Assembly (NCBI GenBank): GCA_022484685.1
Contig: JAKVKY010000009.1
Span: 33,500-57,499, forward strand
Direction of reading: 5' to 3'
DNA: 24,000 nucleotides
Origin: Acidaminococcaceae bacterium
Lineage (GTDB): Bacteria > Bacillota > Negativicutes > Acidaminococcales > Acidaminococcaceae
Part shown: positions 3,447 through 23,850 of the stretch, in pieces
Numbering within the stretch: position 1 is the stretch's first letter
Layout of the letters: each line of letters opens with the position of its first letter
The notes under the pieces: generated by a model
What the model was told of the DNA's origin: nothing
Databases searched by the model: none
The model's input: only the letters and a program-made list of their open reading frames with translations
Position numbers and translations under genes: made by a program

Positions 3447-3447
3447 T

Positions 3448-10254: not shown

Positions 10255-10452
10255 TCAATAATGCCGGGCGTTCCCAGCTAAGCCAACTGCAGCAGGCGGA
10301 GTAATGTTCTCGGAGCGCCGCCGTTTGGCAATGATATAATCCGCCAGCATGGTGGCTATGGCCTCACAGGCCGCATCCGGAAGGCTGGTTAATTCCTTGC
10401 CATCCGGGCCCAAAAACTTAATTGATTGCTGGCGAAGATCTGTTCTTGCCAT
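10255..10452 (-). CDS. Hypothetical phage protein
   Basis: The ATG at 10452 (MARTDLRQQ...) follows GGAGGTGA. The longer track version has no RBS. Confidence 0.5.
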   Translation of the reverse strand: MARTDLRQQSIKFLGPDGKELTSLPDAACEAIATMLADYIIAKRRRSENITPPAAVGLAGNARHY

Positions 10453-11020
10453 GGCGGTCACCTCCAACGATTTTTACCTGCTCCGGCTTTAAAGGTTTTT
10501 GCTCCGGTTCTGACGGTTCCCCGGCTTCGTTAAACAATGGCGGTACAGGGTCACGTTCCACGTTCCGCTTATTCTGATAGGCGTAAAAGAAAGCTTCCGT
10601 CTTTAACGCATCCATCAGGGCCACCTCTTCTTTGGTCATGCGGTTGTCCGAGGACCTGGGATTAGTCCAGTATTTGGGAGTTGTCATGGCAAGGGCCTCG
10701 GTGCTGCCGTCAACTTCCAAACTAAACTTAATCTTGACCCCGTAGCCTTTTTTATTGGCCGGTAAAAAGATAATCTTGTCCACGTAAACCTTTTTGGTAA
10801 ATTCTTCAGGTGTCATCTGCATACCGCAAAAATGAAGAATGCAAAGGTAGGTAAATCTATTAAAGACTTTGGCAAAGTCCTGGTGCCAAAATACCTGTTT
10901 GGCAACTTCGTTGGTCTCCGGATAACTACATTCGGGCAGAACCGTATACAGGATGGTCAGGCCAATTTCATTAAAGCCAATCTTTAAGACCTCAAAGCCG
11001 GTTTCTCCAAAAAACAACAT
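10418..11020 (-). CDS. Hypothetical phage protein
   Basis: 200-aa ORF, ATG at 11020 after AGGAGG. No family recognised. Confidence 0.6.
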   Translation of the reverse strand: MLFFGETGFEVLKIGFNEIGLTILYTVLPECSYPETNEVAKQVFWHQDFAKVFNRFTYLCILHFCGMQMTPEEFTKKVYVDKIIFLPANKKGYGVKIKFSLEVDGSTEALAMTTPKYWTNPRSSDNRMTKEEVALMDALKTEAFFYAYQNKRNVERDPVPPLFNEAGEPSEPEQKPLKPEQVKIVGGDRHGKNRSSPAIN

Positions 11021-11029
11021 GGCAGCCTC

Positions 11030-11470
11030 CTAACGCGGCCACACAAGGGTGACCTCTAAATCCTCATTGGCAGCGACCAGTAAATCACGGCCGTATTTGC
11101 GCAGCCTTTTCTTGGCTGCATCCAGGTTGGTGGGAACATTATCCCCGCGCCGGTACAGCCAATCAGGATGTGGTCCTTCTGTGTGAATATAGACAGCGCT
11201 GCCGCTGCTTTTGGTAAAGACGAACAGGGTATAAAACTTTTGGTTAACCTTGCTGAAGATATGGACTTTATCCGGATACTGATTTAGGTTAGAGCACTGA
11301 CCCAGCCCCGCCGGATTAAAAGCCCTGGGCGCTCTTTGTTGTTTGCCTTTATATATGCAGCCGCCAATACGTTTACAAAGTTTGCAATCCCAGATGCGTG
11401 CAATAGCGGCCCTTTCATTGGCCGGTAGTTTTGCCGCCAGATCGGCCGTATACATATCAAGATCTAACAT
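11030..11470 (-). CDS. Hypothetical phage protein
   Basis: The ATG at 11470 (MLDLDMY...) follows AAGGAGG. 146 aa. No family recognised. Confidence 0.6.
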   Translation of the reverse strand: MLDLDMYTADLAAKLPANERAAIARIWDCKLCKRIGGCIYKGKQQRAPRAFNPAGLGQCSNLNQYPDKVHIFSKVNQKFYTLFVFTKSSGSAVYIHTEGPHPDWLYRRGDNVPTNLDAAKKRLRKYGRDLLVAANEDLEVTLVWPR

Positions 11471-11589
11471 GATGTACCTCCTTAAAAACATTTACTAAAG
11501 ATGTCATTAAATGTCATATTGATTAGTGGTATAATTTGCTTAACAAGATATTGGGCATTTATCAGAGTGATAGTAAAGGATGTGATTTT

Positions 11590-11952
11590 ATGAATAAGTT
11601 TAATCAAGAAAAGCTTGTGCTCTTAATCTCCAGCGGCAAGAATACCTATAAGGATATTAAGGATGGTATACCGGAATTACCAGAGCTGGAGCTTGAGTCA
11701 ATGGTAAATGATATTGCATCCAACCCTGGGTGTATCGTAAAAACTAATGCAGACCTACCTAATTATGGGAATGTACATTTTGCTGATGCGGATACGTTCT
11801 ACCTTACAAACAACGGGAAAGATGTTCTTTACCAGTTGCAAAAGGAAAAGGTGCTCAATAAAAAGGTAGATGATTCATACAAGCTTAACGTCATGATATT
11901 GATCGCTACAGTTATAGGCGTTATCCTTAGTTTTTTAGCACTAACAAAATGA
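11590..11952 (+). CDS. Hypothetical C-terminally membrane-anchored protein (moron)
   Basis: The ATG at 11590 follows AAAGGA. The C-terminal LNVMILIATVIGVILSFLALTK is a hydrophobic anchor. An extended -10 promoter (TGgTATAAT, ~11527-11535) lies upstream. The gene is AT-rich and on the strand opposite the early operon. Confidence 0.55.
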   Translation: MNKFNQEKLVLLISSGKNTYKDIKDGIPELPELELESMVNDIASNPGCIVKTNADLPNYGNVHFADADTFYLTNNGKDVLYQLQKEKVLNKKVDDSYKLNVMILIATVIGVILSFLALTK

Positions 11953-12157
11953 TGTTAATAGCAGTAAATATCACTATTAAAACAATGTTTATGTGGGTCA
12001 ATTTGATTATTCCCTCGGTGGTACGAAACTGTGCCAGATACCATTCCTTAAACTTTTTTAATCTGGTTAACATAATTTCCATCCTTTCTGATAAGTATTT
12101 GTGGACTTGTGATTATAATTTTTTTGTACTATATTGACGATAAAGGAAGTGCGGATA

Positions 12158-12535
12158 ATGAAGAGAGATCTTGAACTTATTAGAAAAATTTTAATTGCTG
12201 TTGAAAAGGCTGATGGTTATGTTGCATTTGACGGCACGCCGGATATTGCCGAAGCTATTGGAGAAGCTGATTTAAGTAATGTTGGGTATCAGGTTAGTTT
12301 GTTAAGTGATTGCAACTATTTAGAAGTTAGTAAGATGGCATTACTTGGATTAGATTATTACAATTACACAATCTTCCGTTTAACCTCTGCCGGGTGCGAT
12401 TACTTAGATAGTGTTAGGGATCCAGGAATATGGGCTAAAACAAAAACTAAGTTGGAAAGCGTGGGCGGTTCGGTATCCCTTGACGTTGTTAAAGATGTTG
12501 CTTGTAAACTTGTTGCGATCCAACTAGGGATTTAG
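12158..12535 (+). CDS. DUF2513-like protein
   Basis: The ATG at 12158 follows AAAGGAAG. The N-terminus MKRDLELIRKILIAVEKADG is the characteristic opening of DUF2513 proteins as I recall them. A candidate promoter is TTGTGA-17-TATATT (~12104-12132). Confidence 0.6.
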   Translation: MKRDLELIRKILIAVEKADGYVAFDGTPDIAEAIGEADLSNVGYQVSLLSDCNYLEVSKMALLGLDYYNYTIFRLTSAGCDYLDSVRDPGIWAKTKTKLESVGGSVSLDVVKDVACKLVAIQLGI

Positions 12536-12734
12536 CCTCGGCCAATATAACGTCGTTAAAGGCTTTGTTTAAGTTTTCATAGGCCTCAATCAGGTAATCA
12601 TCGGTGGAATACAAGTTTTCAAGTTCAATGGACATATTTTCTTTGTGGTTGAGAATAATCCTTAGCCGGTTAATTGATAAATTGCTATTCATATCTTTTT
12701 TGTTCGTGCTTATACTTTTTTCATGACTATCCAT
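12489..12734 (-). CDS. Hypothetical early protein
   Basis: 81-aa ORF. Its 3' end overlaps the convergent DUF2513-like gene by 47 nt, so one of the two ends may be mis-set. Confidence 0.4.
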   Translation of the reverse strand: MDSHEKSISTNKKDMNSNLSINRLRIILNHKENMSIELENLYSTDDYLIEAYENLNKAFNDVILAEAKSLVGSQQVYKQHL

Positions 12735-13063
12735 TATGTTTGTGTATCCTTTCTGTTAGCAGTTTCTTGAAAATTCAAATTAACGAATTGTGATTCTGTT
12801 TTTAAAATCATTTTTGCAAGTTCCAGGGCTGCATATGCTTCAGCATAAGTTAGCCTTGGTTCTTTTTTTAGTAAATCTATGATAGAAAAAGTTAGGACAT
12901 CTTTTACAACCAGAGGCTGTTGATTCTTGTTACTAGGTGTATTTTCAAGGCGGTCCAAGTGGTTAAGATACTTTTGTAAGTTCAGCAGATGTTCTGCCTT
13001 GGGGTTATTTTTTGCATCTGTCAGTGTAATATTCATTACTGTTGCTTTTGTGATTTCGTCCAT
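12734..13063 (-). CDS. Hypothetical early protein
   Basis: 109-aa ORF whose ATG is preceded by the repeated leader carrying a GAAAGGAAT RBS. Confidence 0.5.
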   Translation of the reverse strand: MDEITKATVMNITLTDAKNNPKAEHLLNLQKYLNHLDRLENTPSNKNQQPLVVKDVLTFSIIDLLKKEPRLTYAEAYAALELAKMILKTESQFVNLNFQETANRKDTQT

Positions 13064-13103
13064 GTTCGTATTCCTTTCTGTCGCTGACCAGTTTGCTGGA
13101 AGC
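13061..13103 (-). repeat. Copy A of a 43-nt repeated 5' leader (includes RBS and start codon)
   Basis: The plus-strand sequence catgttcgtattcctttctgtcgctgaccagtttgctggaagc matches 13373-13415 at 39 of 43 positions. Confidence 0.8.
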
Positions 13104-13126
13104 GAAAGTTCCTTTAATGCTGCCGG

Positions 13127-13375
13127 TTACTTTAGAACTGTTAAAAGATATTTGTTCAAAATTTCTTCTTGAGCTTCTTTAATTTCCCGGGCAGAGCCAT
13201 CAGAGTCCCAAAATTCTATTGGTTCAAGTCTTTTATAGTGGTCAACACGTTTTTTAATTATTTTCAGTACTGCGTCTATTTCAGAGGCGCAGTACTGCTT
13301 TTTTTCAAATAGCATTAAAATGAGGCCGGCCATTATTGAAATTCTTAAGTGTGGCGAATTTATTTTTCTGTTCAT
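13127..13375 (-). CDS. Hypothetical early protein
   Basis: 82-aa ORF whose ATG is preceded by the second copy of the repeated leader/RBS. Confidence 0.5.
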   Translation of the reverse strand: MNRKINSPHLRISIMAGLILMLFEKKQYCASEIDAVLKIIKKRVDHYKRLEPIEFWDSDGSAREIKEAQEEILNKYLLTVLK

Positions 13376-13415
13376 GTTCGTATTCCTTTCTGCCGTTGAC
13401 CCGTTTGCTGGGAGC
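13373..13415 (-). repeat. Copy B of the 43-nt repeated 5' leader
   Basis: The plus-strand sequence is catgttcgtattcctttctgccgttgacccgtttgctgggagc. See copy A. Confidence 0.8.
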
Positions 13416-13442
13416 TGCGGTGTTTATAATTGACCACGAATA

Positions 13443-13457
13443 ATTGCGCTACGCAAT
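13443..13457. promoter_or_regulatory. Distal operator-like palindrome ATTGC-N5-GCAAT
   Basis: attgcgctacgcaat has the same half-sites as the three sites in the switch region. It overlaps the stop codon of the Cro-like gene. Confidence 0.45.
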
Positions 13458-13667
13458 TTTAGAGGCAAAAAAATATTGATAATATTCGTCTGTAGTAAGA
13501 TGTAAAAGGTTAGCTAATGCATTTGCTTCATCCAAGTATATTGGTCTCTTACCATTAATCTTTAAACTTACAGTAGGAACGGCACAATCCCAGACTTTGG
13601 ACGATGCAATATCTTTATATGTTACACCGTTTTCCCTCATCTTGCCTTTAATTTTTGCAGTATTCAT
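13449..13667 (-). CDS. Cro-like HTH regulator (XRE-type)
   Basis: 72 aa, divergent from the repressor gene. VTYKDIASSKVWDCAVPTVSLKINGKRPIYLDEANALANLL looks like an XRE-type HTH. It is the first gene of the leftward operon. Confidence 0.6.
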   Translation of the reverse strand: MNTAKIKGKMRENGVTYKDIASSKVWDCAVPTVSLKINGKRPIYLDEANALANLLHLTTDEYYQYFFASKIA

Positions 13668-13682
13668 GTTTACTCCTTTCTA

Positions 13683-13792
13683 ATTGCACTGTGCAATCCT
13701 AATATCTAAAGAATAGCACGGTAAAATATTAATGTCAATAGCACAGTGCAATTATTTTTAGTTATAAGTAAAATATTGTTGCGTTGTGCAAA
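13683..13792. promoter_or_regulatory. Genetic-switch region: three ATTGC-N5-GCAAT-type operators interleaved with divergent promoters
   Basis: Operators: attgcactgtgcaat (13683-13697), atagcacagtgcaat (13738-13752) and gttgcgttgtgcaaa (13778-13792). Leftward promoter: -35 TTGACA (complement of 13733-13738), 17-nt spacer, -10 TATTCT (complement of 13710-13715). Rightward promoter: -35 TTGCGT (13779-13784), 17-nt spacer, TGa-TATACT (-10 at 13802-13807). Confidence 0.65.
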
Positions 13793-13833
13793 GTATTGTG
13801 ATATACTCTAACCAAGTTATAAGGAGCAAAGAA

Positions 13834-14262
13834 ATGAATATTAATAATAAAGAGATTGGAAAAAGGATATCAAATATAAGAGAAGCTGCTGGTTTAAATA
13901 AAAAAGAACTGGCAGAATTGGTTCATGTAGCAGCTTCCACAATTTCAAGATATGAAGATGGCAGTATTGCAAAGATTAAAATTCCTGTAATAAGTGCGAT
14001 TGCGAATGTTCTTGAAATAAATCCTATGTGGATTATTGGTAAATCAGAGATTAAAGACATCAATAACGGTTGTATCAAGGAAAGTGGAGATTTAATAATT
14101 GATGGAAATAGAAGTAAGCCGTTTCAAAAATTATCGAGTGAGGAACGTAGCATTATAAATAAATACCGCGCCTTGGATGAGCGCGGCAAGTTTAATGTAC
14201 GAGAAACCATTGATCGCGAATATGCTTTTGTGAGGCCAGATAGCAAAGGGCAAGAAGCTTAA
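13834..14262 (+). CDS. cI-like repressor, XRE-family HTH, no S24 peptidase domain
   Basis: The ATG at 13834 follows TAAGGAG. MNINNKEIGKRISNIREAAGLNKKELAELVHVAASTISRYEDGS is a classic XRE HTH. The C-terminal half lacks an obvious LexA-type Ser/Lys domain. Confidence 0.8.
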   Translation: MNINNKEIGKRISNIREAAGLNKKELAELVHVAASTISRYEDGSIAKIKIPVISAIANVLEINPMWIIGKSEIKDINNGCIKESGDLIIDGNRSKPFQKLSSEERSIINKYRALDERGKFNVRETIDREYAFVRPDSKGQEA

Positions 14263-14340
14263 AGCAGCGCCTGGCCTGCGCCGGGATTAAGATAGTGAAG
14301 TAAATGACGGTAGGCTGAGTATCGTACAAAGGATAAAGAT

Positions 14341-14703
14341 ATGATTAGTGAAATCGGAGTGTTTTCCCAAACTGTTATTACAACATTGGGCCTGACTATT
14401 GCACCTGGTACTCCTATTTATCTTGGTCAGAGCAACATAATTCATATGAAAAGTAAACATTTAGAAGATTATTTGAAATATGAAGCCTATATCACAGATA
14501 TACTATCTAACCCGGATTATGTGGCCATAAATAGAAAAGACAGCTCAATTGAATATGTTAAATTATTTTTGACTAACAGTGAATATGTTAAGGTAGCAGT
14601 CAGGGTATCTACTAACGGGATTTATTATGCACGTTCATTATACGTTCTTAATGCAAAGAGAGTGCAGAACTTTATAACAGCTGGTACTCTTAAGCCAGTT
14701 TGA
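14341..14703 (+). CDS. Small conserved phage protein, possibly barnase/EndoU/RelE-fold (PBECR-like) nuclease
   Basis: 120 aa, AAAGGA RBS. The block PIYLGQSNIIHMKSKHLEDYLKYEAYITDILSNPDYV...SIEYVKLF...VKVAVRVSTNGIYYARSLYVL resembles PBECR-type proteins as I remember them. The functional call is weak. Confidence 0.45.
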   Translation: MISEIGVFSQTVITTLGLTIAPGTPIYLGQSNIIHMKSKHLEDYLKYEAYITDILSNPDYVAINRKDSSIEYVKLFLTNSEYVKVAVRVSTNGIYYARSLYVLNAKRVQNFITAGTLKPV

Positions 14704-14728
14704 CAAAACTTTATAAATACTTTATACT
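14700..14728 (+). promoter_or_regulatory. Near-consensus sigma-A-type promoter
   Basis: -35 TTGACA (14700-14705, overlapping the TGA stop of the preceding ORF), exact 17-nt spacer, -10 TATACT (14723-14728). Confidence 0.65.
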
Positions 14729-14734
14729 GTAAGT

Positions 14735-14838
14735 ACAGGGAAGGATTTGAGGGCGGAACAGGCAGCCGCCACCGGAGAGCCGCAAGGCTTGATTAGGGGA
14801 TGTGGGAATGTCACCCCACCTAATCCTTAAACCTAAAG
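14735..14838 (+). ncRNA. GC-rich structured leader or small RNA, class not recognised
   Basis: Helices seen by eye: GGCGG (14752-14756)/CCGCC (14766-14770); GAGCC-GCAA-GGCTT, a GNRA-capped hairpin (14777-14790); and GATTAGG (14791-14797)/CCTAATC (14819-14825). AAGGATT (14741-14747) can alternatively pair with AATCCTT (14822-14828), which overlaps the previous 3' arm. A promoter lies upstream and a terminator downstream. Confidence 0.5.
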
Positions 14839-14881
14839 AAGCCGTACTACAGTAAAATGTGGTGCGGCTTTTGTTTTATTT
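14839..14881 (+). terminator. Rho-independent terminator
   Basis: AAGCCGUACUACA-GUAAAA-UGUGGUGCGGCUU forms a 13-bp stem with two G-U pairs. It is followed by UUGUUUUAUUU. Confidence 0.7.
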
Positions 14882-14925
14882 CAAGTGGAGTGCTATGGTA
14901 GCGTGAATAAGTTAAAGGGGGCTTG

Positions 14926-15684
14926 ATGATGTATATTATCTTGGCTTTATGCGGAATAATAGTTTTCGTCGGCCTGGTTAATTTTGTTGTGAATACCCCT
15001 ACGCCCAGGCGTTGCCCATATACCCTAAAACTTAACAACGGACAGGACTTTGTTGTAAAAAAAGGCTTGGAAGGTCCGCCCATTGTTGATAAAGAGATTC
15101 TGGCCGGCAGAAAGCTTTGGTTCCGGCTGGTCAAAGATTTTACGGTAATTTGTTTTGATACGGCCAACGCATATCCGGATTCGGTTTGCGCCGTTGGCTA
15201 CGCTGTGGTTAAGAATAATAAAATTGTGGATAATATGTTTTATCTATGCCGGCCGCCTTATGATGATTTTTATAACACCAAGTATAACGGCGTGACTTTG
15301 GCAATCGTCCAAAAGCATCCAACTTTTTTAGGCATCTGGGAACAGATCAGGCCGGTAATCGAAGGCCAGGTTGTTGGCGCTTATAATCTGCCATTTCATT
15401 TTAGCTGTCTTAATGCGGCGCTTAAAAATATCGGCGCCGAAGCCCATTATGCATGCTTCGACATTTTGGATGATGCCAGGCGTTTCCTCCCGGGATTAAA
15501 GGATTATTCCCTGGCAGCCGTATCTAAAATCGGCAACTTTGATAGTTCCCCGGATGCTGGAACCAGGGCGCTCAACGCCGCCAGAATCCAAATCATCATT
15601 AATAAGCGGATAAAGGCAATTCCTTATTATGTAGAAGAAAATAATAAAATTGGGGGCGTGTTGGATGAAGAAAAGCTTGCTTAG
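14926..15684 (+). CDS. Membrane-anchored DEDD (DnaQ-like) exonuclease-fold protein with degenerate catalytic motifs
   Basis: Start is ambiguous (TTG 14923, ATG 14926, ATG 14929; GGGGG RBS at 14917-14921). The N-terminal YIILALCGIIVFVGLVNFVV is a TM helix. Residues ~75-235 align by eye to the DnaQ-like consensus, but with substitutions at the catalytic positions: FDTANA for FDxETT, YNLPFH for HNxxFD, and GTRALNAA for HxALxDA. Confidence 0.6.
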   Translation: MMYIILALCGIIVFVGLVNFVVNTPTPRRCPYTLKLNNGQDFVVKKGLEGPPIVDKEILAGRKLWFRLVKDFTVICFDTANAYPDSVCAVGYAVVKNNKIVDNMFYLCRPPYDDFYNTKYNGVTLAIVQKHPTFLGIWEQIRPVIEGQVVGAYNLPFHFSCLNAALKNIGAEAHYACFDILDDARRFLPGLKDYSLAAVSKIGNFDSSPDAGTRALNAARIQIIINKRIKAIPYYVEENNKIGGVLDEEKLA

Positions 15685-16636
15685 CGCAGCTGTCGTAGCT
15701 GCCATGCTTGTGGTGTCGCTGCCTGCGATGGCCGCAGATTCTGCACAGGTGAGGGCGACAAAGGCTGCTAAGATTGTAGAGGCATTAAAAGACGATAATT
15801 TTGCAAGCTTAGCAAATAAACAGTTACGGATACATCTTTATGATAAGTTGGGAATAGACCTGGGTGGGAATATTGTTTTACAAGAAAAAATGAGAAAGTA
15901 TAGTACTGAAGATACGGATATTTTAGGAAAAAATATTATACAAGATAAAAATATACTAGAAAAACAGCCCATACAGTCTGAAACTAATTTAAGTAATTTG
16001 ACAAACACAGGCATTATTATTGATGATATAAAAGATCAAACGATTTATAAACAAGATGTCGTTTTGATTTATAAATGTGATAAGGCGGTCCTAACGTGCC
16101 AAAACTCCAATAACGATATACCTAGTGCTAGAGCTGAATTTGAAAAAGAGCTTTATAATCATTATGGAAAGCGGTTTGTTATAAAACGTATTATTTATGA
16201 CCCTAATCAATTTCTTGAAAAGAAGGATGCATTTTTGGCCATGGTAAAGCCTGACGAAAATATTCTTATTGTCAAGATAACTTTGGAAGGCCAAGGGTTA
16301 GATGTTAAAGAATTTCAAAATGCCTTTGGCGCTAAAATTGGTGCAACCGTTCCCACTACTAAGGTGCATGTTGTTGAAGGAATTTTCAATGCTCATGAAC
16401 ATAAAGAAGGTTACAGTGATTACGGTGTTAAGGATTATTCGGCCTATACTTATGCGTTGGGTAATCGGATTTATACACAAACAGATCCGCGGAAATTAGT
16501 TAAAAATAATATTCGTGGGTGCATAAGGGATATTTGTAGATTTTATGGTGACCAGGTAAACAAATATGCTAATCCGGTGGGATATCAAAATGAGATAAAT
16601 CGGTATAGTGGTAGGTTCTATGACCTCAAGAAGTAA
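15665..16636 (+). CDS. Secreted protein of unknown function (Sec signal peptide)
   Basis: The ATG at 15665 gives MKKSLLSAAVVAAMLVVSLPAMA/ADS, with a basic n-region, hydrophobic core and AxA cleavage motif. It overlaps the upstream gene by 20 nt. The mature part is Lys/Asn/Ile-rich with no family recognised. Confidence 0.65.
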   Translation: MKKSLLSAAVVAAMLVVSLPAMAADSAQVRATKAAKIVEALKDDNFASLANKQLRIHLYDKLGIDLGGNIVLQEKMRKYSTEDTDILGKNIIQDKNILEKQPIQSETNLSNLTNTGIIIDDIKDQTIYKQDVVLIYKCDKAVLTCQNSNNDIPSARAEFEKELYNHYGKRFVIKRIIYDPNQFLEKKDAFLAMVKPDENILIVKITLEGQGLDVKEFQNAFGAKIGATVPTTKVHVVEGIFNAHEHKEGYSDYGVKDYSAYTYALGNRIYTQTDPRKLVKNNIRGCIRDICRFYGDQVNKYANPVGYQNEINRYSGRFYDLKK

Positions 16637-16681
16637 TAATGAGGTAGGGGTTTATAATGAAAATATGGAGGAGATATTGAG

Positions 16682-18370
16682 ATGGGTGATAATAAGACAA
16701 TAGAACTCCCTTTAGGTAATGATGTAGGTAAAATAATCTCTTTTACAAAAAAGAAACGTCAGCACAAGCCGCTTACGGAGATTGTTTCTATTCATAAATT
16801 ACAAATAACTAAATTTAGACAGTTCGAAAATGTAGAACTGGATTTAGGAGATACAATAACTGCTATAGCTGGTCATAACGCTACAGGGAAATCCACTTTG
16901 TTGGCATTAATAGGTAATAGTTGTGAGTTAAAAGTTAGTGGCGCCGAGAAGCCCTTGATTAAAGAGCAGTTTAGGGCAGAGTTAAGACAAATTATAAAAT
17001 GCTCACTAAAGAATGATATTCGAACAAAACAAGCTATGGTGATTAATTATAAGTTGCCAGGTGGAAAATTGATAGATGTTCCGTTCCGGTTTGGTTGGTG
17101 GGCGAAAGATACAAGACCAAGGCTTGTACCTAAATACAACGGATCTGAATCAAAGTTGAAGTTCCCAGTTTTGTATATTGGACTAAGCCGCTTGCAGCCA
17201 TTAGGAGAATGCGAAGGTAATGTAATGCATTCTAAGGTGTCAGAGTTTTTGGCCAAGCATAAAAATTACAGAGATTGGATTATTGAGAAGTATAAGTACA
17301 TACTCTCTTTACATGAAGTTGAGGGGATTGAAGCACATAAGCATCCTGTTGCCATGCAGAAGGTTTTTGTTGGCGTAAAGAATAAGACTTATGATGAATT
17401 ATGCAATTCTGCTGGTCAAGATAATTTAGGGCAGATACTACTGGCATTTTTATCATTTAAGAATCTTCAAGATAACCATATTAAAAATAAGATTCCTTGG
17501 AATGGAGGAATCTTGCTTGTTGATGAACTTGATGCTACATTACATCCTGCGGCACAGTGTAGGTTATTAGAGGTTTTTGTTAAAGAGATAGAAAAGCATG
17601 ATCTTAAATTGCAAATTGTTTTTACTACGCATAGCCCATCGCTTTTAGAAAGTTTCTATACTTTGCCGGAGTTGAAAAATAATAGAGATAAATATAAGGT
17701 AATATATTTGACACGGGCTAATGGTGATTTGGCAGTAATGAACAATCCGGATTTTGAATTTATCCGTTCTGATATGTTAATTACAGACCCGGCAACTAAA
17801 AGACAAACTAAAATAAATATTTATTCTGAAGACCATGAGGCTAAATGGTTGTTCAATCAGTTGCTTAAAGATACTAACAGGTTATCTAATTATCATATTA
17901 TTAATATGGATATATCATGTTCTACATTAATTAAATTAAATGAAGAAGCTCCTGAAGATTTTTCTAATTCTATAATTCTGCTGGATGGTGATTGTAGAAA
18001 ATCTTTCAATTGTAAAACAATTCCATTCAATATCATTTTTCTTCCTGGGGAAAAACGTCCAGAAAGTGTTATATATGATTATTTAATGAATACTGATGCC
18101 ATGAACCCAATTTTACACAATCCGAATTTTCCGGCAGCGACTAAACGCGGAATTGAAGAGTTCGGACCATTAAGCGCAAAATATGAACATATCCAGGAAG
18201 AGCGTAGCAAATATAAAAAATGGTTCCAAGATAGTGAGTTCTGGTTAACAGGTGATGCAGTTATTGATAGGTGGAAAAAAGATTGCGAAAAACAATATAA
18301 TGATTTCTTAAATCAGCTGAATAAGGTTACGATGAAGCTCATTATCAAAAAAGCTAAAATGTCAAAATAA
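16682..18370 (+). CDS. ABC-type (AAA_15/21-like) ATPase fused to a Toprim-like (OLD / DUF4435-like) domain
   Basis: 562 aa, GGAGGAGA RBS. ATPase motifs: Walker A GHNATGKST, signature-like NSAGQDNLGQ, Walker B GGILLVDELDATLHP, H-loop VFTTHSPSL. The C-terminal third carries IYSEDHEAKW ... IILLDGDCRK ... FLPGEKRPESVIY, arranged like the Toprim E...DxD. Confidence 0.7.
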   Translation: MGDNKTIELPLGNDVGKIISFTKKKRQHKPLTEIVSIHKLQITKFRQFENVELDLGDTITAIAGHNATGKSTLLALIGNSCELKVSGAEKPLIKEQFRAELRQIIKCSLKNDIRTKQAMVINYKLPGGKLIDVPFRFGWWAKDTRPRLVPKYNGSESKLKFPVLYIGLSRLQPLGECEGNVMHSKVSEFLAKHKNYRDWIIEKYKYILSLHEVEGIEAHKHPVAMQKVFVGVKNKTYDELCNSAGQDNLGQILLAFLSFKNLQDNHIKNKIPWNGGILLVDELDATLHPAAQCRLLEVFVKEIEKHDLKLQIVFTTHSPSLLESFYTLPELKNNRDKYKVIYLTRANGDLAVMNNPDFEFIRSDMLITDPATKRQTKINIYSEDHEAKWLFNQLLKDTNRLSNYHIINMDISCSTLIKLNEEAPEDFSNSIILLDGDCRKSFNCKTIPFNIIFLPGEKRPESVIYDYLMNTDAMNPILHNPNFPAATKRGIEEFGPLSAKYEHIQEERSKYKKWFQDSEFWLTGDAVIDRWKKDCEKQYNDFLNQLNKVTMKLIIKKAKMSK

Positions 18371-18426
18371 TAGACTATGGCCAAAAATAGTATTTTGATA
18401 TATACTGTGTGCGAGGAGGTGTTAAT

Positions 18427-19293
18427 ATGCCCCAGACAATGACGCCGCTGAGATACCCTGGTGGGAAGTCTCAGTTGGCCAAATTTATTAAGCACACAAT
18501 TGAATTTAATAATTTGACAGATTCCATATATTGTGAACCATTTTGTGGTGGTTCCGGGGTCGCTATTTCTCTGCTTTTAAGGAATCAGGTTTCATCTATC
18601 ATATTAAATGACCTCGACACAGCCATATACTCGTTCTGGAGAGCTGTTCTGACGGAAACAGATAGATTGACTGAGCGTATTAATACAGTTAGGGTAACGA
18701 TGAATACCTGGCATAGGCAGAAAAATGTTTTCCTTAATTTAAGAGATAACCGTGATTATAGTTTTGAACTAGCTTTTGCAACTTTTTTCCTTAACAGGAC
18801 CAACAGATCCGGTATTATAACCGGTGGCCCTATTGGAGGATATGAGCAGGATTCAGATTATAAGTTGGAGTGCCGTTTTAATAGAGCTGATTTAATCAAG
18901 AAAATAAAGAATATCTCGGTACATAGAGAACAAATCCAGTTATATCATCTTGATGCCATTGACTTAATACACGAAGTTTTATTAAGGCAAGCCCCCAATA
19001 GGTTGTTTATTTATTTTGACCCACCGTATTACGTTCAGGGGAAAAAATTGTACAAAGATTCTTTTGATGATGAGATGCATGGCAGTCTGGCTGATGCAAT
19101 CCATGAGTTGAATGATTATCACTGGATGGCTACCTATGATGATGTAAAAAGGATTAGGGAACTTTACAATGACCTGCAAATCAGGGAATACTCCATTCGC
19201 TATTCGGCAAATGAAAAACGCCAGGCAAAGGAAATATTCTTCTGTAGCCCAGCAACAAGAGTCGAAGATTATGACAAAGTAGTATTTGAATAA
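18427..19293 (+). CDS. D12-class (Dam-type) N6-adenine DNA methyltransferase
   Basis: The ATG at 18427 follows GAGGAGGTG (the track start at 18409 is not ATG). Motifs: LRYPGGKSQL, EPFCGGSGVA (FxGxG SAM site), FFLNRTNRSG and FDPPYY (DPPY catalytic motif). The order matches E. coli Dam. Confidence 0.9.
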   Translation: MPQTMTPLRYPGGKSQLAKFIKHTIEFNNLTDSIYCEPFCGGSGVAISLLLRNQVSSIILNDLDTAIYSFWRAVLTETDRLTERINTVRVTMNTWHRQKNVFLNLRDNRDYSFELAFATFFLNRTNRSGIITGGPIGGYEQDSDYKLECRFNRADLIKKIKNISVHREQIQLYHLDAIDLIHEVLLRQAPNRLFIYFDPPYYVQGKKLYKDSFDDEMHGSLADAIHELNDYHWMATYDDVKRIRELYNDLQIREYSIRYSANEKRQAKEIFFCSPATRVEDYDKVVFE

Positions 19294-19377
19294 AACACTA
19301 ACTTTATAATTTACCTTCTTTTTATAAAGATACCTTACATACAGCAGTAATATGGTATTCCATGGTAATATAGAGTA

Positions 19378-19417
19378 TTTTTGTCAATACTTTTTTGAAT
19401 AAAAGTATTGACAAAAA
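19378..19417. repeat. Perfect 17-bp inverted repeat with 6-nt spacer (operator-like palindrome)
   Basis: TTTTTGTCAATACTTTT (19378-19394), ttgaat, AAAAGTATTGACAAAAA (19401-19417). The U-run precedes and the A-run follows on both strands, so it is not a canonical terminator. Confidence 0.85.
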
Positions 19418-19436
19418 ACACCAGGGTATGTACAAT
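19408..19436 (+). promoter_or_regulatory. Near-consensus promoter embedded in the right arm of the palindrome
   Basis: -35 TTGACA (19408-19413), 17-nt spacer, -10 TACAAT (19431-19436). Confidence 0.65.
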
Positions 19437-19442
19437 ATATTT

Positions 19443-19533
19443 AACAAAGGATTCTTTGTTAAGTTAATAGTGTCCCTGGTGGTAGGCCGTCCAACTAATA
19501 TGGTACGTGCTGAGATCAGGGACTTTTTTATTT
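19443..19533 (+). terminator. Leader RNA: 5' hairpin plus a long terminator hairpin with U-tract, immediately upstream of the NYN gene RBS
   Basis: 5' hairpin: AACAAAG-GATT-CTTTGTT (19443-19460). The outer stem GTCCCTGGT (19472-19480)/ATCAGGGAC (19515-19523) encloses the inner helix GCCGTCCA/TGGTACGTGC, which has two bulged U. TTTTTTATTT follows (19524-19533), and the AAAGGA RBS is at 19537-19542. Confidence 0.6.
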
Positions 19534-19551
19534 ATGAAAGGATGATGTTTT

Positions 19552-20343
19552 ATGGAAGTTGCAATTTTGGTTGATGGTGGTTTTTATCGTCGTAGAGCCC
19601 AGAAGTGTATTGGCGAGAAAACAGCACAGGAACGCGCTGAAGAGCTAATTGAGTATTGTATGCGTCATTTAAACCAGGGACACCAAAAGTATTATGATTT
19701 ATACCGAATTTTTTATTATGATTGTCCGCCCATGAGTAAGAGTGTTTATCATCCATTACTTAAGAAAAGTTTGGATTTTAGCAAAACAGATTTGTTTAAA
19801 TGGACTAATGACTTTTTTGAAGAATTAAAAAAGAAACGTAAAGTTGCTTTAAGATTAGGTAATCTAGCTGATAAGCAGGCATATTTTGGAATTAGACCTT
19901 ATGTTCTTAAAGATATCCTGAATGGAAAACGTGGAATGGAATCGCTAACGGAGCAGGATTTTAAGATTAACGTTGATCAGAAGGGTGTTGATATTAAAAT
20001 CGGTATTGATATTGCTTCTTTAGCTTATAAGAAACAAGTTAGGCAGATTGTACTTATTTCTGGTGATAGTGACTTTGTGCCAGCTGCTAAATTGGCAAGG
20101 CGTGAAGGTATTGACTTTATACTTGATCCTCTTTGGAATCCTATTAAGCCTGACTTATATGAGCATATAGATGGACTTTATACCTGTGATGATATATTCA
20201 AACCTAAAAATTTCAGATATAGTTCAACAAGGCAGGGATGCCAATCAAGTAAGACAAAAGTATTTGTATCCCCATATGATAAATCTTCAGTCCCGTCTCA
20301 GGTTCCGGTTCAGACTCCCGTTCAAGATAAAAAGAATAATTAA
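19552..20343 (+). CDS. NYN-domain (LabA/PIN-like) ribonuclease-family protein
   Basis: 263 aa. VAILVDGGF, VDQKGVDIKIGIDIASLA and VLISGDSDFVPAAKLARREGIDF match the conserved acidic blocks of NYN/LabA domains. The C-terminal tail is low-complexity (VPSQVPVQTPVQ). Confidence 0.8.
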   Translation: MEVAILVDGGFYRRRAQKCIGEKTAQERAEELIEYCMRHLNQGHQKYYDLYRIFYYDCPPMSKSVYHPLLKKSLDFSKTDLFKWTNDFFEELKKKRKVALRLGNLADKQAYFGIRPYVLKDILNGKRGMESLTEQDFKINVDQKGVDIKIGIDIASLAYKKQVRQIVLISGDSDFVPAAKLARREGIDFILDPLWNPIKPDLYEHIDGLYTCDDIFKPKNFRYSSTRQGCQSSKTKVFVSPYDKSSVPSQVPVQTPVQDKKNN

Positions 20344-20374
20344 GGATTATTAAGATGTAGTTATAATAAAAATA

Positions 20375-20402
20375 GCCGCCAGGTGTTGGCGCACCAGGCG
20401 GC
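20375..20402. terminator. GC-rich hairpin between the NYN gene and int; the U-tract is on the minus strand only
   Basis: GCCGCCAGGTG-ttggcg-CACCAGGCGGC forms 10 bp plus one A/A mismatch. On the minus strand it is followed by UAUUUUUAUUAU. On the plus strand it is preceded by an A-run but not followed by U. Confidence 0.35.
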
Positions 20403-20490
20403 CGTGTAAACGCTCTACCCACAAAAGTAGGCTGATTACTATTTAATTATAGCATATTAGCCTGTCTTTAACAATTATAAGGAGATTTTT

Positions 20491-22008
20491 ATGTTAAGAG
20501 CAGCTATTTATGCCAGGTATTCCAGCGATAATCAGCGCCATGAAAGTATTGAAACACAATATAGAATCTGTGAGGACTATTGCCGTCAAAAAGGTTACCT
20601 GGTTGTGACCCACTATAAAGATGAGGCTAAGACCGGTACCATGGTGGCCAAGCGTGACGGATTTGCCCAAATGAAACTGGATGCCGGTTTGGACATATGG
20701 GATGTACTGGTGGTGTATACGCTGGATCGCACGGCGCGCCAGGAACTGGATTACTATTTATATAAGCAAGAACTGCTGGCGGCCGGCGTACGATATGAGT
20801 ATGCCACGGAATCTTTTGACCCCGGTACGGTGGACGGGCAGTTTTTTGAAGGAATTCAGGTGGCGCAGGCTGCATGGTACAGTCGTAAGCTTTCTGTAAA
20901 AATTAAGGACGGCAAAGAAACCAATGCCAAGGACCACTTGTTCCCTGGCGGCAAGCCACCTTTTGGCTATGATGTTACTCCAGAGCATGAATATGTGCTT
21001 AACCAGGGTGAGGCGGTGGCCGTGCGGGCAATTTTTGAGCAATATAATAACGGCCATAGCTATGGGGATATCATGAACTGGCTCAATGCTCGGGGATATC
21101 GTACTAAAAATGGTCAGTTGTTTGGCAAAAATAGCTTGTATGACCTGTTGGCAAATCCTAAATATGCAGGTACTTATATTTACCGCAGACATGCTACAAC
21201 CGGGAAAAAGACAAACAGCCACCGGGATAATCCGGATGCGCTTGTTTATACGAATGCTGTACCGGCTATCATCTCCGCTGCCGATTTTGCCAGGGCCCAG
21301 GAGCGTAAAAAAGCAAACAAGAATTGTGGTATCCGGAACAAAAGCTTCTATTTATTAAGCGGTCTGGTGCGCTGTGGTGAGTGCGGTCATGCCATGAGCG
21401 GCAACAGCGTGAGCCGTAGCCATTATCGTTATGAGTTTTATCAATGCACGCAAAAAATGACCAGAGGAGTGGCTGCGTGTCCCAATATCAAGATTAAGAA
21501 ACAGGAGCTGGAAGAGGCTGTCATAGCCGGCATGCTCAAAATAATGACGGTCCCTAACCTGGACATGATAATTACCCAAGCCACGGAAAAGATTGCTGCG
21601 CAGTTGGACGATACGGCCGAAGATGCCGCCACCGTAACTGCTAAGATTAGCGGACTTAACACTAAACTCAATAATATTTATAATGTAATCGAGTCCGGCG
21701 CCGCCGATGAGTTTGATCTGGCCCGGTTGGCGGATATTAAAAAGCAAATTACTGTTGCCCGGGAACATCTGGCACAGATTAATGCCTTTAGGCCGACGCT
21801 CATTGACAGGGATGAAGTGTTGGCCGAATGGTCAGAATTTGTTCCGGTCTTGAAAAACAAAAAAGATCCGCAAAAATTGCGGACCCTGTTAGGAAAATTT
21901 ATATCAACTATTACTGTATTCGCAAACCGCATAACGGTGCAGGTTGCACTACATTGTAGCGAAAAACTGGTAGCGCTAATGGGAATCGAACCCATGATTT
22001 CGCCTTGA
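20491..22008 (+). CDS. int: Large serine recombinase (prophage integrase)
   Basis: 505 aa, AAGGAGA RBS. The N-terminal AIYARYSSDNQ...ETQ resolvase-type catalytic-Ser motif is followed by a recombinase domain and the zinc-ribbon CGECGH...CTQKMTRGVAACPN, then a coiled-coil region. The last 41 nt of the ORF are antisense to tRNA-Glu. Confidence 0.9.
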   Translation: MLRAAIYARYSSDNQRHESIETQYRICEDYCRQKGYLVVTHYKDEAKTGTMVAKRDGFAQMKLDAGLDIWDVLVVYTLDRTARQELDYYLYKQELLAAGVRYEYATESFDPGTVDGQFFEGIQVAQAAWYSRKLSVKIKDGKETNAKDHLFPGGKPPFGYDVTPEHEYVLNQGEAVAVRAIFEQYNNGHSYGDIMNWLNARGYRTKNGQLFGKNSLYDLLANPKYAGTYIYRRHATTGKKTNSHRDNPDALVYTNAVPAIISAADFARAQERKKANKNCGIRNKSFYLLSGLVRCGECGHAMSGNSVSRSHYRYEFYQCTQKMTRGVAACPNIKIKKQELEEAVIAGMLKIMTVPNLDMIITQATEKIAAQLDDTAEDAATVTAKISGLNTKLNNIYNVIESGAADEFDLARLADIKKQITVAREHLAQINAFRPTLIDRDEVLAEWSEFVPVLKNKKDPQKLRTLLGKFISTITVFANRITVQVALHCSEKLVALMGIEPMISP

Positions 22009-22042
22009 GAGGGCGACGTCTTAGCCTCTTGACCATAGCGCC
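21968..22042 (-). tRNA. tRNA-Glu (anticodon CUC)
   Basis: 75-nt cloverleaf: acceptor GGCGCUA/UAGCGCU (first pair is G-U), D-arm GUCA-AGAGGCUA-AGAC, anticodon arm UCGCC-CUCUCAA-GGCGA, T-arm AUGGG-UUCGAUU-CCCAU, discriminator A and encoded CCA. The architecture parallels E. coli tRNA-Glu. Confidence 0.8.
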
Positions 22043-22057
22043 GTTTGTCTAAAAAAA

Positions 22058-22131
22058 TGGCTCCGGGACCAGGACTCGAACCCAGACAAGAAGATCCAGA
22101 ATCTCCTGTGCTACCATTACACTATCCCGGA
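22058..22131 (-). tRNA. tRNA-Gln (anticodon CUG)
   Basis: 74-nt cloverleaf: acceptor UCCGGGA/UCCCGGA with the U1-A72 typical of tRNA-Gln, D-arm GUGU-AAUGGUA-GCAC, anticodon arm GGAGA-UUCUGGA-UCUUC, T-arm CUGGG-UUCGAGU-CCUGG (two wobble pairs), discriminator G and encoded CCA. Confidence 0.75.
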
Positions 22132-22160
22132 GTATATAAGCACAATCGTGCTACCTGATT

Positions 22161-22189
22161 AGTATAAAACACCCGGCGAAAACTGTCAA
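22161..22189 (-). promoter_or_regulatory. Promoter of the tRNA-Gln/tRNA-Glu operon
   Basis: In minus sense: -35 TTGACA (complement of 22184-22189), 17-nt spacer, -10 TATACT (complement of 22161-22166). It lies ~30 nt upstream of the tRNA-Gln 5' end. Confidence 0.65.
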
Positions 22190-22319
22190 GTCCCATTTTG
22201 AAAAACTTTTAAGCTAAAAGGACGGAGTAAGTGGAAATAGTTTTCTAAAAAGCAATTTTACGTTATAATAGAAAGACACAAGTTCCGAGAAGGACGTGCC
22301 AAGAAACGGGAGATGCAAG

Positions 22320-23693
22320 ATGCATAGACAAAAAAGAAAGACGGCCGGTTTGGTGCTGGCCTTATTGTTAGGTAGCGCCGGGTTATTGCTGCCTCACGGG
22401 GCGGCGGCAACCGAGGCGGCCGTTGCTAAGACTGTGCAGGCGGAGCGTGCCGCGGTGGCAGCTTCGTTGCCTCAGGCCGAGAAACATGCGCCGGTACAGT
22501 TTACCGCGGTCCAGATTATTGACGGCGTACCTGTGACCATGCAGGGAACGCCGGTGACAGCCACGTCCCCTGACCAGAGCGCCTTTTTAATTCAGCACGG
22601 GGCCAATGTGGTCCTGCAAAAGATGGAGATTACTAAGAGCGGCGATAACGCCAGCGGCGAGTATACGGATGGCGGTTTGAATGCGGCGGTGTTAACCACG
22701 GATGCTAACGCCAGCCTGGATACTTGTACGGTGACCAGTGACGGTACCGGCGCCAGTGGTATTTTTGCCAGCGGTATGGCCGGGAAGGTCCGTGCTCATA
22801 ATACTACGGTTAGTACCAGCGGCGAAGCTTCCCGGGCTTTGGCGGCGGTGAACGGCGCGACAATCAGTGCGAATAAGATGACGCTGACCACAGCCGGCAA
22901 GGAAAGTCCGGCGCTGTTCGCTTTTGGCGACGATGCGTCTCTCTTAGTTTCTGACAGCAAGATTACGACCACCGGTGCGGACAGTCCCTGCGTTTATTCC
23001 CTGGGGACCGTGAGCCTGGTAACCAGTACGGCCACGGCGACTAATAGTGAGATGGCCGTGGTGGAAGGCAGCAATGATTTAACCCTGGACGCCGTCAAAT
23101 TAACCGGCGGGAAAAAATACGGTCTTCTGTTATATGCCAGCCTGTGGGAAGATGCGGACCCGGGCACGGCGGTCCTGGCGGTGCGGAATTCCACGCTGAC
23201 CAGTACGGCGCCGGCAGGCTTGTTTTATGTGACTAATACTAAGGCCGCTGTGACTTTGGAAAACAGCGTGCTGAATTATAGCGGCGACGTGGTTGCCCAG
23301 GTAGGCGCCGGTCCTTGGGGAACCCCGGGCCGCAATGGCGCTATCTTTGATTTGACTTTGACGAAGCAGCAGCTGAACGGAAATATCGTGGCGGATAAGC
23401 TGAGCAAGGTTTCGATTAACCTGGCCCAGGGGAGCACCTGGAACGGGACCGTGAATACAGATGCCAGCGCCCGGGAAGCCAACGTCAACATGCATGCTTT
23501 GGCCAACTGGTCGTTGAGCGGCGACGCCCATCTGAATATCTTTACGGATGATGATTTGAAGCTGGAAAACGTAGCCAGCAACGGCTACCGTATTTATTAC
23601 AATGCTAAGAATAAGGCGAATAAGTGGCTGGAAGGTAAGCGTTATAAATTAAGCGACGGCGGTCAGCTGGTGCCGGAACCCAAAGTAAAGTAA
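22320..23693 (+). CDS. Secreted protein with repetitive beta-helix-like segments (adhesin / pectate-lyase-fold-like), host gene
   Basis: The ATG at 22320 follows GGGAGA. Signal peptide MHRQKRKTAGLVLALLLGSAGLLLPHGAAA. The body consists of Gly/Thr/Ser/Ala-rich ~25-aa segments that recur (for example TTSGEASRALAAVNGATISANKMTLTTAGKESPALFAFGDDASLLVSDSKITTTGADSPCVYSLG). High GC (40/60 in a sampled 60-mer). Confidence 0.6.
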   Translation: MHRQKRKTAGLVLALLLGSAGLLLPHGAAATEAAVAKTVQAERAAVAASLPQAEKHAPVQFTAVQIIDGVPVTMQGTPVTATSPDQSAFLIQHGANVVLQKMEITKSGDNASGEYTDGGLNAAVLTTDANASLDTCTVTSDGTGASGIFASGMAGKVRAHNTTVSTSGEASRALAAVNGATISANKMTLTTAGKESPALFAFGDDASLLVSDSKITTTGADSPCVYSLGTVSLVTSTATATNSEMAVVEGSNDLTLDAVKLTGGKKYGLLLYASLWEDADPGTAVLAVRNSTLTSTAPAGLFYVTNTKAAVTLENSVLNYSGDVVAQVGAGPWGTPGRNGAIFDLTLTKQQLNGNIVADKLSKVSINLAQGSTWNGTVNTDASAREANVNMHALANWSLSGDAHLNIFTDDDLKLENVASNGYRIYYNAKNKANKWLEGKRYKLSDGGQLVPEPKVK

Positions 23694-23765
23694 AATCTGG
23701 AGCCTGTACGAGAAATTTACTTAAACCGGTAACAGGCTGGATGCCACTTGGTGCGGACATAAATT

Positions 23766-23829
23766 AAAAGAACGGACCCGTTTAGGGTGCAGACCCGTAA
23801 TCTGTAACCTAAAGGGGCTCCGTTCTTTT
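23766..23829. terminator. Long bidirectional terminator hairpin between convergent host genes
   Basis: The outer stem AAAAGAACGGA (23766-23776)/TCCGTTCTTTT (23819-23829) encloses the inner stem CCCGTTTAGG/CCTAAAGGGG (one mismatch). An A-run precedes and a T-run follows, so it can terminate in both directions. Confidence 0.65.
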
Positions 23830-23850
23830 CTTATGTTAAAAAGAGGTTAA

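Follow-up and report, generated by a model that had tools for sequence, protein, structure and literature searches.

A 24,000-nucleotide (nt) stretch of contig JAKVKY010000009.1 from an Acidaminococcaceae bacterium (hereafter the window, at its full length) contains a prophage in which a low-GC island lies between a cI-like gene and the gene for a large serine recombinase. Five open reading frames (ORFs) on the plus strand of this island, reported by a first-pass annotation and here termed P1 to P5, were confirmed by their coordinates, and the domain calls made for all five products were reproduced. They comprise a membrane-anchored exonuclease-fold protein (P1), a secreted protein (P2), an ABC-type ATPase fused to a predicted nuclease domain (P3), an adenine methylase (P4) and a NYN nuclease (P5) (Table 1). 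The genes do lie on the lysogenic strand in the 'moron' slot between repressor and integrase, and several of them encode defence-type domains, as that annotation had held. Its parallel with cargo carried at this position by phages of Gram-positive bacteria is not supported, the host being a diderm Negativicute (Acidaminococcaceae) and not a classical Gram-positive; the product of a host-flank gene shares a 90% cluster with a protein from an Acidaminococcaceae metagenome-assembled genome. The account that follows centres on the gene pair formed by P3 and P4.

P3 matched the families AAA_15, AAA_21 and SMC_N and, at 376 bits, phrog_3940, a PHROG without assigned function. Across 78 homologues the ABC motifs were invariant (K70 of Walker A, the NSAGQDN signature, D281/E282 and H317), as were acidic residues of the C-terminal region (E383/D384, D435-G-D437 and E461). 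An AlphaFold2 model built on the same 78 homologues had a pLDDT confidence score of 90.9, and Foldseek searches matched P3 to the ABC heads found in PtuA, retron Eco8, GajA, TsOLD and Rad50 with E values of 1e-10 to 3e-12. Modelled separately (pLDDT 91.2), the C-terminal domain displayed the beta-alpha order of a Toprim domain, with strands 1 and 3 followed by acidic residues, and the PADLOC ATPase-Toprim_I-B profile spanned P3 residues 276-481. The domain gave no match to Pfam models, nor to the PDB by sequence search, and when the P3 family was compared by hhalign with one P2 Old sequence, the alignment was limited to the Walker B region. Among the top 30 Foldseek matches of the C-terminal domain, all non-significant, were AriB (8ux9), the OLD C-terminal region (6nk8/6njv) and topoisomerase VI. 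On the basis of these motifs and weak matches P3 is named 'OLD-like', and its C-terminal domain is probably a divergent member of the Toprim group. P3 bore no resemblance to the restriction endonuclease families scanned.

A second contig matching window positions 6983-24000 (JGI 3300056808 Ga0558721_02481, L084) differs mainly by a 28-bp imperfect tandem duplication in P3 (window approximately 16948; L084 9966-9994). The duplication adds an in-frame TAA that splits P3 into genes of 92 and 471 amino acids, which could mean that the nuclease has been naturally inactivated or could be a variant of the assembly; the duplication is absent from a further contig carrying the island (L097; JGI 3300047159, 201.6 kb).

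P4 matched the PADLOC profile PD-Lambda-5_B (PDLC04018) at 370 bits, with residues 7-290 aligned to profile positions 1-280 of 291, and also MTase_II (PDLC03358) at 310 bits and Pfam MethyltransfD12 at 89 bits. The catalytic motifs FCGGSG (FxGxG) and DPPY are kept, and judged from its sequence P4 looks like an active N6-adenine methylase. Its score against the Dam subfamily model TIGR00571 (82.7 bits) fell under the cutoff of 114.85, so GATC specificity is not to be assumed. The corresponding PHROG, number 56, is annotated merely as 'DNA methyltransferase'.

To place the pair in context, 80 genome loci and three phage records fetched by P3 homology (83 loci in all) were searched for the proteins of the window. 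A P4-type methylase gene adjoined the P3 homologue in 77 of them, at a median gap of 19 nt; the two genes were on the same strand in 76 of these loci, with P3 first in 50 and the methylase first in 26, and convergent in the remaining one. Of the six loci without an adjacent methylase, four were cut by contig ends and one held a truncated P3; the sixth held an intact P3, on a short contig with little upstream DNA and a DUF2726 gene downstream. P3 loci were drawn from at least 10 phyla, with representatives in Bacillota, Negativicutes, Actinomycetota, Fusobacteriota, Bacteroidota, Elusimicrobiota, Melainabacteria, Pseudomonadota and others. The order repressor, P3, methylase, (Fic), integrase recurs in Streptococcus agalactiae phage phiGBSVK-D_GBSInt4 and in Selenomonas prophages, the latter with a Fic gene after the methylase, and the pair likewise lies between repressor and integrase in Vibrio phage ValB1MD-2. 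Outside prophages it stands on chromosomes beside Mrr, type I restriction-modification (R-M) genes, transposases and HerA-NurA. All-against-all ORF clustering of the 83 loci yielded a single further recurrent neighbour, a protein of 430-520 amino acids that PADLOC identified as PD-Lambda-5_A; it adjoins P3 in 16 of the 83 loci, often in the order A-P3-methylase. No helicase family recurred among the neighbours in these loci, and no HNH neighbour of the kind found in Septu (PtuB) was present in the window or in the 83 loci.

Viewed from the methylase side, in a sample of the 80 best IMG/VR loci (viral contigs), the methylase was partnered by P3 only in 42, by PD-Lambda-5_A only in 29, by both in one and by neither in eight. 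This split indicates that the methylase family has two largely alternative effector partners, of the ParB/HEPN type or of the P3 type, and in the sampled phages pairing with P3 is no less frequent than the named PD-lambda-5 pairing. P3+P4 is thus a widespread, unnamed sister of PD-lambda-5. PD-lambda-5 is catalogued as ParB/HEPN plus methylase whilst the sampled viral contigs favour the OLD-like partner (42/80 vs 29/80), and a detection rule requiring both A and B would miss the P3 pairing. No description of P3 paired with a methylase was found in the literature searched, although an earlier one is possible, for example in the ABC-ATPase survey of Krishnan et al. (2020).

Individual loci show varied surroundings of the pair: at L067/L068 (118-3533), L044 (1842-2525) and L089-L091 the neighbours were HerA-NurA directly upstream, DUF2726 and Fic.

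PD-lambda-5 was identified by functional selection in E. coli ECOR7 as two genes, encoding a ParB/HEPN protein and a methyltransferase (Vassallo et al. 2022; PMC9519451). Protection was broad, and cloning required an mrr-deleted host (PMC9519451), indicating that the PD-lambda-5 methylase is active. The P3+P4 pair shares with it the methylase family and the arrangement as a two-gene prophage-borne module with the effector usually upstream, and A and P3 occur with the same methylase family, sometimes together. The difference lies in the effector, which here is an ABC-ATPase/Toprim-like fusion unrelated in sequence to ParB/HEPN, and in the absence of A from the window: PADLOC found no match to PD-Lambda-5_A among the 10 window proteins scanned, and 17 A-type proteins, searched by tblastn, had no match in the window under E 0.2. 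The candidacy of P3 itself as PD-Lambda-5_A was rejected, the supplement giving A as ParB/HEPN and P3 having no such match. The first-pass annotation had found no named system that fitted the island. This stands for Gabija, AbiL and Septu, none of which fits the ensemble, and probably for PARIS, but not for P4, a full-length PD-Lambda-5_B, and with PD-Lambda-5_A as the alternative partner of the P4 family the methylase does not lie wholly outside named systems.

Other ATPase-nuclease systems resemble P3 to differing degrees. There is no dedicated model for P3, and its best PADLOC score was 68.6 bits, to HEC-04; the match fails over the full length of that model, breaking into three stretches of which the best covers residues 162-323 of 562. 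HEC-04, an ATPase-TOPRIM fusion, provides defence that requires its Walker A motif and its Toprim metal site (bioRxiv 10.1101/2024.01.29.577857). HEC-04 and IbfA join an ABC ATPase to a Toprim domain at the C-terminus that bears an E...DxD metal site, a two-domain plan that P3 probably shares, and HEC-04 is embedded in a methylase-containing system (Hma). However, HEC-04 (Payne et al. 2024, preprint) and the Salmonella plasmid gene IbfA are single genes, whereas P3 occurs in obligate pairing with a Dam-family methylase. Remaining models scored lower: GajA models gave 48-52 bits only, the AriA and AriAB models reached 60 and 55 bits, confined to partial stretches (AriA 8ux9_B, E 3e-6, N-terminus only), and NCBIfam PtuA (NF041760) 46.3 bits against a cutoff of 500, with NCBIfam scores for retron Eco8 and MAD3 far under their cutoffs.

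Within the OLD family, class 1 comprises P2 Old and TsOLD, class 2 GajA, class 3 the retron Eco8 effector and class 4 the PARIS proteins AriA/AriB. P3 shares with these an ABC head with inserts (Foldseek matches to retron Eco8, GajA 8u7i/8x5i and TsOLD 6p74), Toprim-type E/DxD/E motifs and, as with P2 old, a position in the prophage conversion slot. It differs in that the GajB helicase, the reverse transcriptase and multicopy single-stranded DNA and a separate AriB partner are all absent here, and in a C-terminal domain too divergent for the Pfam Toprim and DUF4435 models. A methylase partner lies outside the contexts given for the OLD classes in a 2023 review, which nowhere mentions methylases, and the abstract on PARIS gives AriA ATPase and AriB nuclease as components and lists no methylase linkage. 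No helicase of the Gabija kind was found in the island. A further comparison is offered by PrrC, which carries a HEPN-like anticodon nuclease domain and is encoded inside a complete hsdMSR locus (EcoprrI, type I R-M). Both PrrC-EcoprrI and P3-P4 link an ABC-type nucleoside triphosphatase-nuclease fusion, predicted in the case of P3, with a DNA-modification enzyme, although here the latter is a Dam-family methylase only, with no HsdR or HsdS.

We propose that P3+P4 would function as an R-M-like system with an unconventional nuclease. P4 would mark lysogen and prophage DNA at its target motif, and ATP binding or hydrolysis by P3 would license its Toprim-like nuclease against unmarked nucleic acid of incoming phage. 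This proposal draws on the linkage of P3 to the methylase, the interchangeable effectors, the intact motifs of both proteins and the occurrence of the pair in prophage slots and defence islands; to the central step, marking of self DNA by P4 and attack on unmarked invaders by P3, we would give a chance a little short of even. If P3 does read methylation, it would represent a restriction enzyme built on an OLD/ABC-Toprim scaffold, linking R-M with OLD, PARIS and Gabija, and the pair would be a tractable two-gene system in which to study self/non-self discrimination by ABC-Toprim proteins.

Several results weigh against this proposal. Foldseek matches of the P3 C-terminal domain did not reach significance (E at least 0.15), and DUF4435, the sole Pfam family to match more than one member of the P3 family, did so below threshold, in 2 of 24 members at E 0.015. 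P3 contains no domain that could be recognised as reading DNA sequence. The divergence of P3 and of the methylase correlates weakly among distant pairs (below 50% identity, r 0.15); the mirror-tree comparison, with r 0.76 overall, was set aside as uninformative. In two reports the relatives P2 Old and AriB, which carry OLD/AriB-type Toprim nucleases, cleave tRNA in abortive-infection schemes (PMC12445682, PMC12409363), and this favours a guard-type alternative. The nuclease gene comes first in the 50 loci noted above, an order ill suited to the entry of a classical R-M system into a naive host, and neither a C-protein nor any other obvious delay device was found at P3+P4. The guard-type alternative follows the logic of PrrC/EcoprrI or PARIS: P3 would be a latent suicide nuclease, checked by P4 or monitoring it, and a phage anti-restriction or anti-methylase factor such as a DNA mimic or S-adenosylmethionine lyase would free P3 and kill the cell, methylation not being the self/non-self mark that P3 reads. 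Such a pair would form a minimal PrrC-like hybrid of R-M and abortive infection. Sensing of phage proteins by ABC ATPases of the P3 clade accords with it, as do the lack of an obvious DNA-reading domain and the loci in which P3 is embedded between PD-Lambda-5_A and the methylase, like PrrC inside hsd; obligate linkage to a methylase would suit an antidote or guardee role equally well. However, no other nuclease is present in 61 of the 77 P3 loci with a linked methylase or in 42 of the 80 methylase loci, and a guarded lone methylase restricts nothing. P3 and A moreover behave as alternatives and not as a layered pair, both being present in just one of the 80 methylase loci. We regard a guard role as possible but on the unlikely side.

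A role outside defence appears very unlikely. P4 would then be an ordinary phage Dam-type methylase acting against host restriction, and P3 a replication or recombination ATPase; orphan Dam-like methylases are common in phages, PHROG 56 bears no annotation beyond 'DNA methyltransferase', and the PHROG of P3 is without assigned function. Yet both genes lie on the lysogenic strand beside int and away from the replication genes, the pair also occurs outside prophages in the company of Mrr, type I R-M genes and transposases, P4 falls below the Dam cutoff but matches a validated defence component over its full length, and the alternative partner of the methylase is itself a validated defence protein.

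The first-pass annotation had read the whole island as a candidate multi-gene cassette. Its case holds for P3 and P4, which co-occur in 77 of the 83 loci, but not for P1, P2 and P5, which were never found with them: in none of the 83 loci did P1, P2, P5, the cI-like gene or the PBECR3 nuclease gene stand beside a P3 homologue. Nor is P5 part of a shared cassette, as it recurs alone in unrelated phages. The island is therefore a mosaic of independently mobile accessory modules and not one five-gene system. Apart from P3+P4, its separate units would be a skipping-rope small RNA gene with PBECR3, a rare P1+P2 envelope pair and a cassette of promoter, structured RNA and NYN gene. As an overall explanation, a mosaic island with P3+P4 as an R-M-like core is one that we hold to be probable by a small measure.

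Joint action of P1 to P5 as a single new immunity system is, by comparison, most improbable. The five genes share one strand, little space separates P1 to P4 (a 35-nt overlap followed by gaps of 45 and 38 nt) and no terminator-like site was detected between 14872 and 19474, so P1-P2 may be co-transcribed with P3-P4 in this phage, a point that weighs against treating them as separate units; moreover, a 96%-identical P1 on another contig is followed by a P2-like gene and then by a gene of more than 398 amino acids. On the other side stand the lack of co-occurrence in the 83 loci, the possession by P5 of its own promoter and RNA and its occurrence alone in approximately 450 viral contigs, the widely differing neighbours of P3+P4 elsewhere (Fic, Mrr, type I R-M, PD-Lambda-5_A) and the near restriction of P1 and P2 to this phage lineage.

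Table 1. Features of the island and its borders (window coordinates)
Feature	Position	Strand	Remarks
cI-like helix-turn-helix gene	13786-14262	+	Left of island
PBECR3 (Barnase/EndoU/ColicinE5-D/RelE-like) nuclease gene	14341-14703	+	Pfam PF18812, 78.9 bits; just outside 14700-20450
Low-GC island under study	14700-20450	+ (ORFs)	Prophage of Acidaminococcaceae bacterium
Sigma-70-like promoter TTGACA-17-TATACT	14700-14728	+	11/12; consensus match only
Skipping-rope RNA, Rfam RF02924	14742-14827	+	55.8 bits vs gathering 36.7; E 4.7e-11; full model 1-80
Intrinsic-terminator-like hairpin and T-run	14837-14872	+	15-pair stem; closes skipping-rope transcript
P1, N-terminal transmembrane helix and catalytically dead DEDDh (DnaQ/PolC-type) exonuclease fold	14923-15684	+	
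P2, secreted Cys-containing protein	15650/15665-16636	+	Signal peptide MKKSLLSAAVVAAMLVVSLPAMA
P3, ABC-type ATPase with divergent Toprim-like nuclease domain (OLD-like)	16682-18370	+	Putative effector of two-gene module
P4, D12-class N6-adenine DNA methylase, PD-Lambda-5_B family	18409-19293	+	Likely start ATG 18427
Sigma-70-like promoter TTGACA-17-TACAAT	19408-19436	+	11/12; consensus match
5' hairpin	19440-19463	+	Between promoter and RNA
NYN-associated structured RNA, 68-nt	19463-19532	+	Covariance model R1, 59.3 bits
P5, NYN/LabA-like nuclease gene	19552-20343	+	Pfam NYN 41 bits; phrog_5783 287 bits
Large serine recombinase (integrase)	20491-22008	+	Right border; Resolvase, Recombinase, Zn_ribbon_recom

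P1 scored 75 bits against NCBIfam PRK06195, below the cutoff, and all its NCBIfam scores were far below theirs. Alignment with the PolC exonuclease 2p1j showed replacement of the five DEDDh residues (D->C77, E->D79, D->H, H->T and D->N). A single P1 homologue, 96% identical, was present among 5.8e9 protein clusters, and its gene lies between a cI-like gene before it and a P2-like gene after it. The overlap of P1 with P2 shortens to 20 nt if P2 starts at ATG 15665. P2 had five hits among the same 5.8e9 clusters and no match in four family libraries, and no relatives of P1 or P2 were found in IMG/VR. P2 appears modular: its N-domain is common to the phage with the 96%-identical P1, which carries a different C-domain, whilst its own Cys-rich C-domain (16060-16636) is 48-52% identical to P0124, a secreted protein encoded on a host chromosome in the same metagenome. 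Proteins of the P0124 type (L098-L101) have 224 amino acids and a signal peptide and lie in a non-phage context, apparently in the same host. The combination of a membrane-tethered dead exonuclease with an exported host-like protein suggests an envelope-level exclusion or conversion function for P1+P2, which is speculation.

The NYN gene P5 has a wider distribution, relatives being encoded in 450 IMG/VR stretches. Homologues stand solitary beside cI or int in phages of Streptococcus, Dorea, Burkholderia, Moraxella and E. coli, including Stx phages, and some take the place of rexAB in lambdoid and Stx2a phages. Regions upstream of P5 homologues from Streptococcus, Dorea, Burkholderia, E. coli phages and IMG/VR contigs could be aligned, and they contain a structured RNA, preceded at most loci by a visible TTGACA/TATAAT pair. 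The consensus consists of an 8-bp P1 stem, an internal loop nAGUAAG/CGAAyC, a P2a/P2b stem of 2+4 bp and an A..AUAA loop, with a U-run after the RNA in 32 of 39 distinct sequences. Compensatory changes were present at 14 of 14 pairs, and 92.3% of cells were paired, compared with 72.7% for shuffles (0/500) and 23-57% for slid controls. In 79 of 80 viral loci covariance model R1 placed the RNA upstream of the NYN start, at a distance of 15-110 nt, and across 1.3 Mb of unrelated loci its matches were confined to the four sites already known upstream of NYN genes. Only six of the 19 matches to a loose DNA pattern for the RNA were real by the covariance model. With no match in Rfam 15 at E<=1, the RNA is a well-supported candidate for a new RNA family, and it provides a handle on an uncharacterised and very common prophage gene. 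P5 homologues stand alone in diverse phages, and the promoter, RNA and NYN gene are thus an autonomous moron.

The cassette (19408-20343) resembles type III toxin-antitoxin (TA) systems (ToxIN, CptIN, TenpIN) in its order of promoter, structured RNA, terminator-like U-run and endoribonuclease-type gene and in its carriage on mobile elements. It differs in that the RNA is a single hairpin, with no tandem repeat at 19300-19560, and in that P5 has a NYN/PIN-like fold and not that of ToxN/AbiQ. By analogy with those systems it might represent a novel type of toxin or abortive-infection module under RNA control, an idea that we consider doubtful: the single hairpin RNA would serve as inhibitor or as autoregulatory target of a PIN-like NYN toxin, and temperate phages of Bacillota and Pseudomonadota would carry such a module in their hundreds as an autonomous moron. 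A more conservative alternative is that NYN binds or cleaves the RNA to regulate its own expression. Were the toxin interpretation correct, the cassette together with PBECR3 and the skipping-rope RNA 5 kb upstream would make 'nuclease plus dedicated structured RNA' a recurrent design in prophage immunity. A search of the literature on NYN prophage toxins returned nothing relevant.

At one locus (L190, 9247-9569) a true copy of the RNA (68.6 bits) without a NYN gene lies beside two recombinase genes and abuts a truncated ToxN ORF (PF13958, 67.8 bits) on the opposite strand. In the window, a 12-nt tandem repeat of 2.8 copies (20291-20324) encodes a variable, low-complexity C-terminal tail of P5, VPSQVPVQTPVQ, which is missing from the homologues.

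The two promoter-like sites, each followed by a hairpin and T-run, that had been described in the island were confirmed, but each supposed leader is a separate structured RNA. A skipping-rope RNA, 39 nt downstream of the PBECR3 gene, is the first of them. On an independent IMG/VR contig (L202, 1501-1982) a skipping-rope RNA also lies approximately 65 nt downstream of a 61%-identical PBECR3 gene, so that the arrangement was seen in both of the two loci examined; on this ground the element in the window is assigned to the upstream PBECR3 gene and likely does not belong with P1. The skipping-rope class is reported to be associated with a nearby protein (Weinberg et al. 2017). In that family a terminator follows the RNA, as it does in the window, and no structural difference was noted. 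The link to PBECR3 may help to explain this RNA family. The PBECR3 gene begins 78 nt after the cI-like gene on the same strand (13786-14703), and the two may form an Xre-antitoxin/toxin-type pair in addition to the role of the cI-like protein as immunity repressor.

The counts of GC per 60 nt on which a sharp compositional fall had been proposed (20/60, 16/60, 32/60 and 40/60) were exact on recount, and the fall is real, with a GC fraction of 0.368 over 14700-20450 against 0.467 in the structural and lytic genes (1-11500), 0.468 in the integrase gene and 0.528 in the host flank. Its border, however, lies not at 14700 but at approximately 11.5 kb, the interval 11501-14699 having a GC fraction of 0.354; low GC therefore marks the entire lysogeny and early-control region and extends beyond the cargo. 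P1 (0.437) is less AT-rich than the remainder of the island.

Against window 14247-19473, contig L097 carries 21 single-base insertions, 20 of which extend short homopolymer runs; 19 of the 21 are inside the island and none is in the preceding 8 kb, and all island gene calls are fragmented there. Pseudogenisation of the island in L097 was rejected in favour of assembly error, since all 21 differences are +1 insertions and 20 extend homopolymers. They are probably read or polishing errors.

At the right border the 3' end of the integrase gene overlaps tRNA-Glu(CTC) (21968-22042, minus strand), the 3' end of which is probably the attachment site; tRNA-Gln(CTG) lies beside it (window 21968-22131). 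Towards the left end of the low-GC block, two more plus-strand ORFs (11536-12535) lie opposite the early lytic genes. The first encodes 138 amino acids with a C-terminal hydrophobic segment and matches no family, the second belongs to DUF2513/phrog_585, and both may be additional morons.

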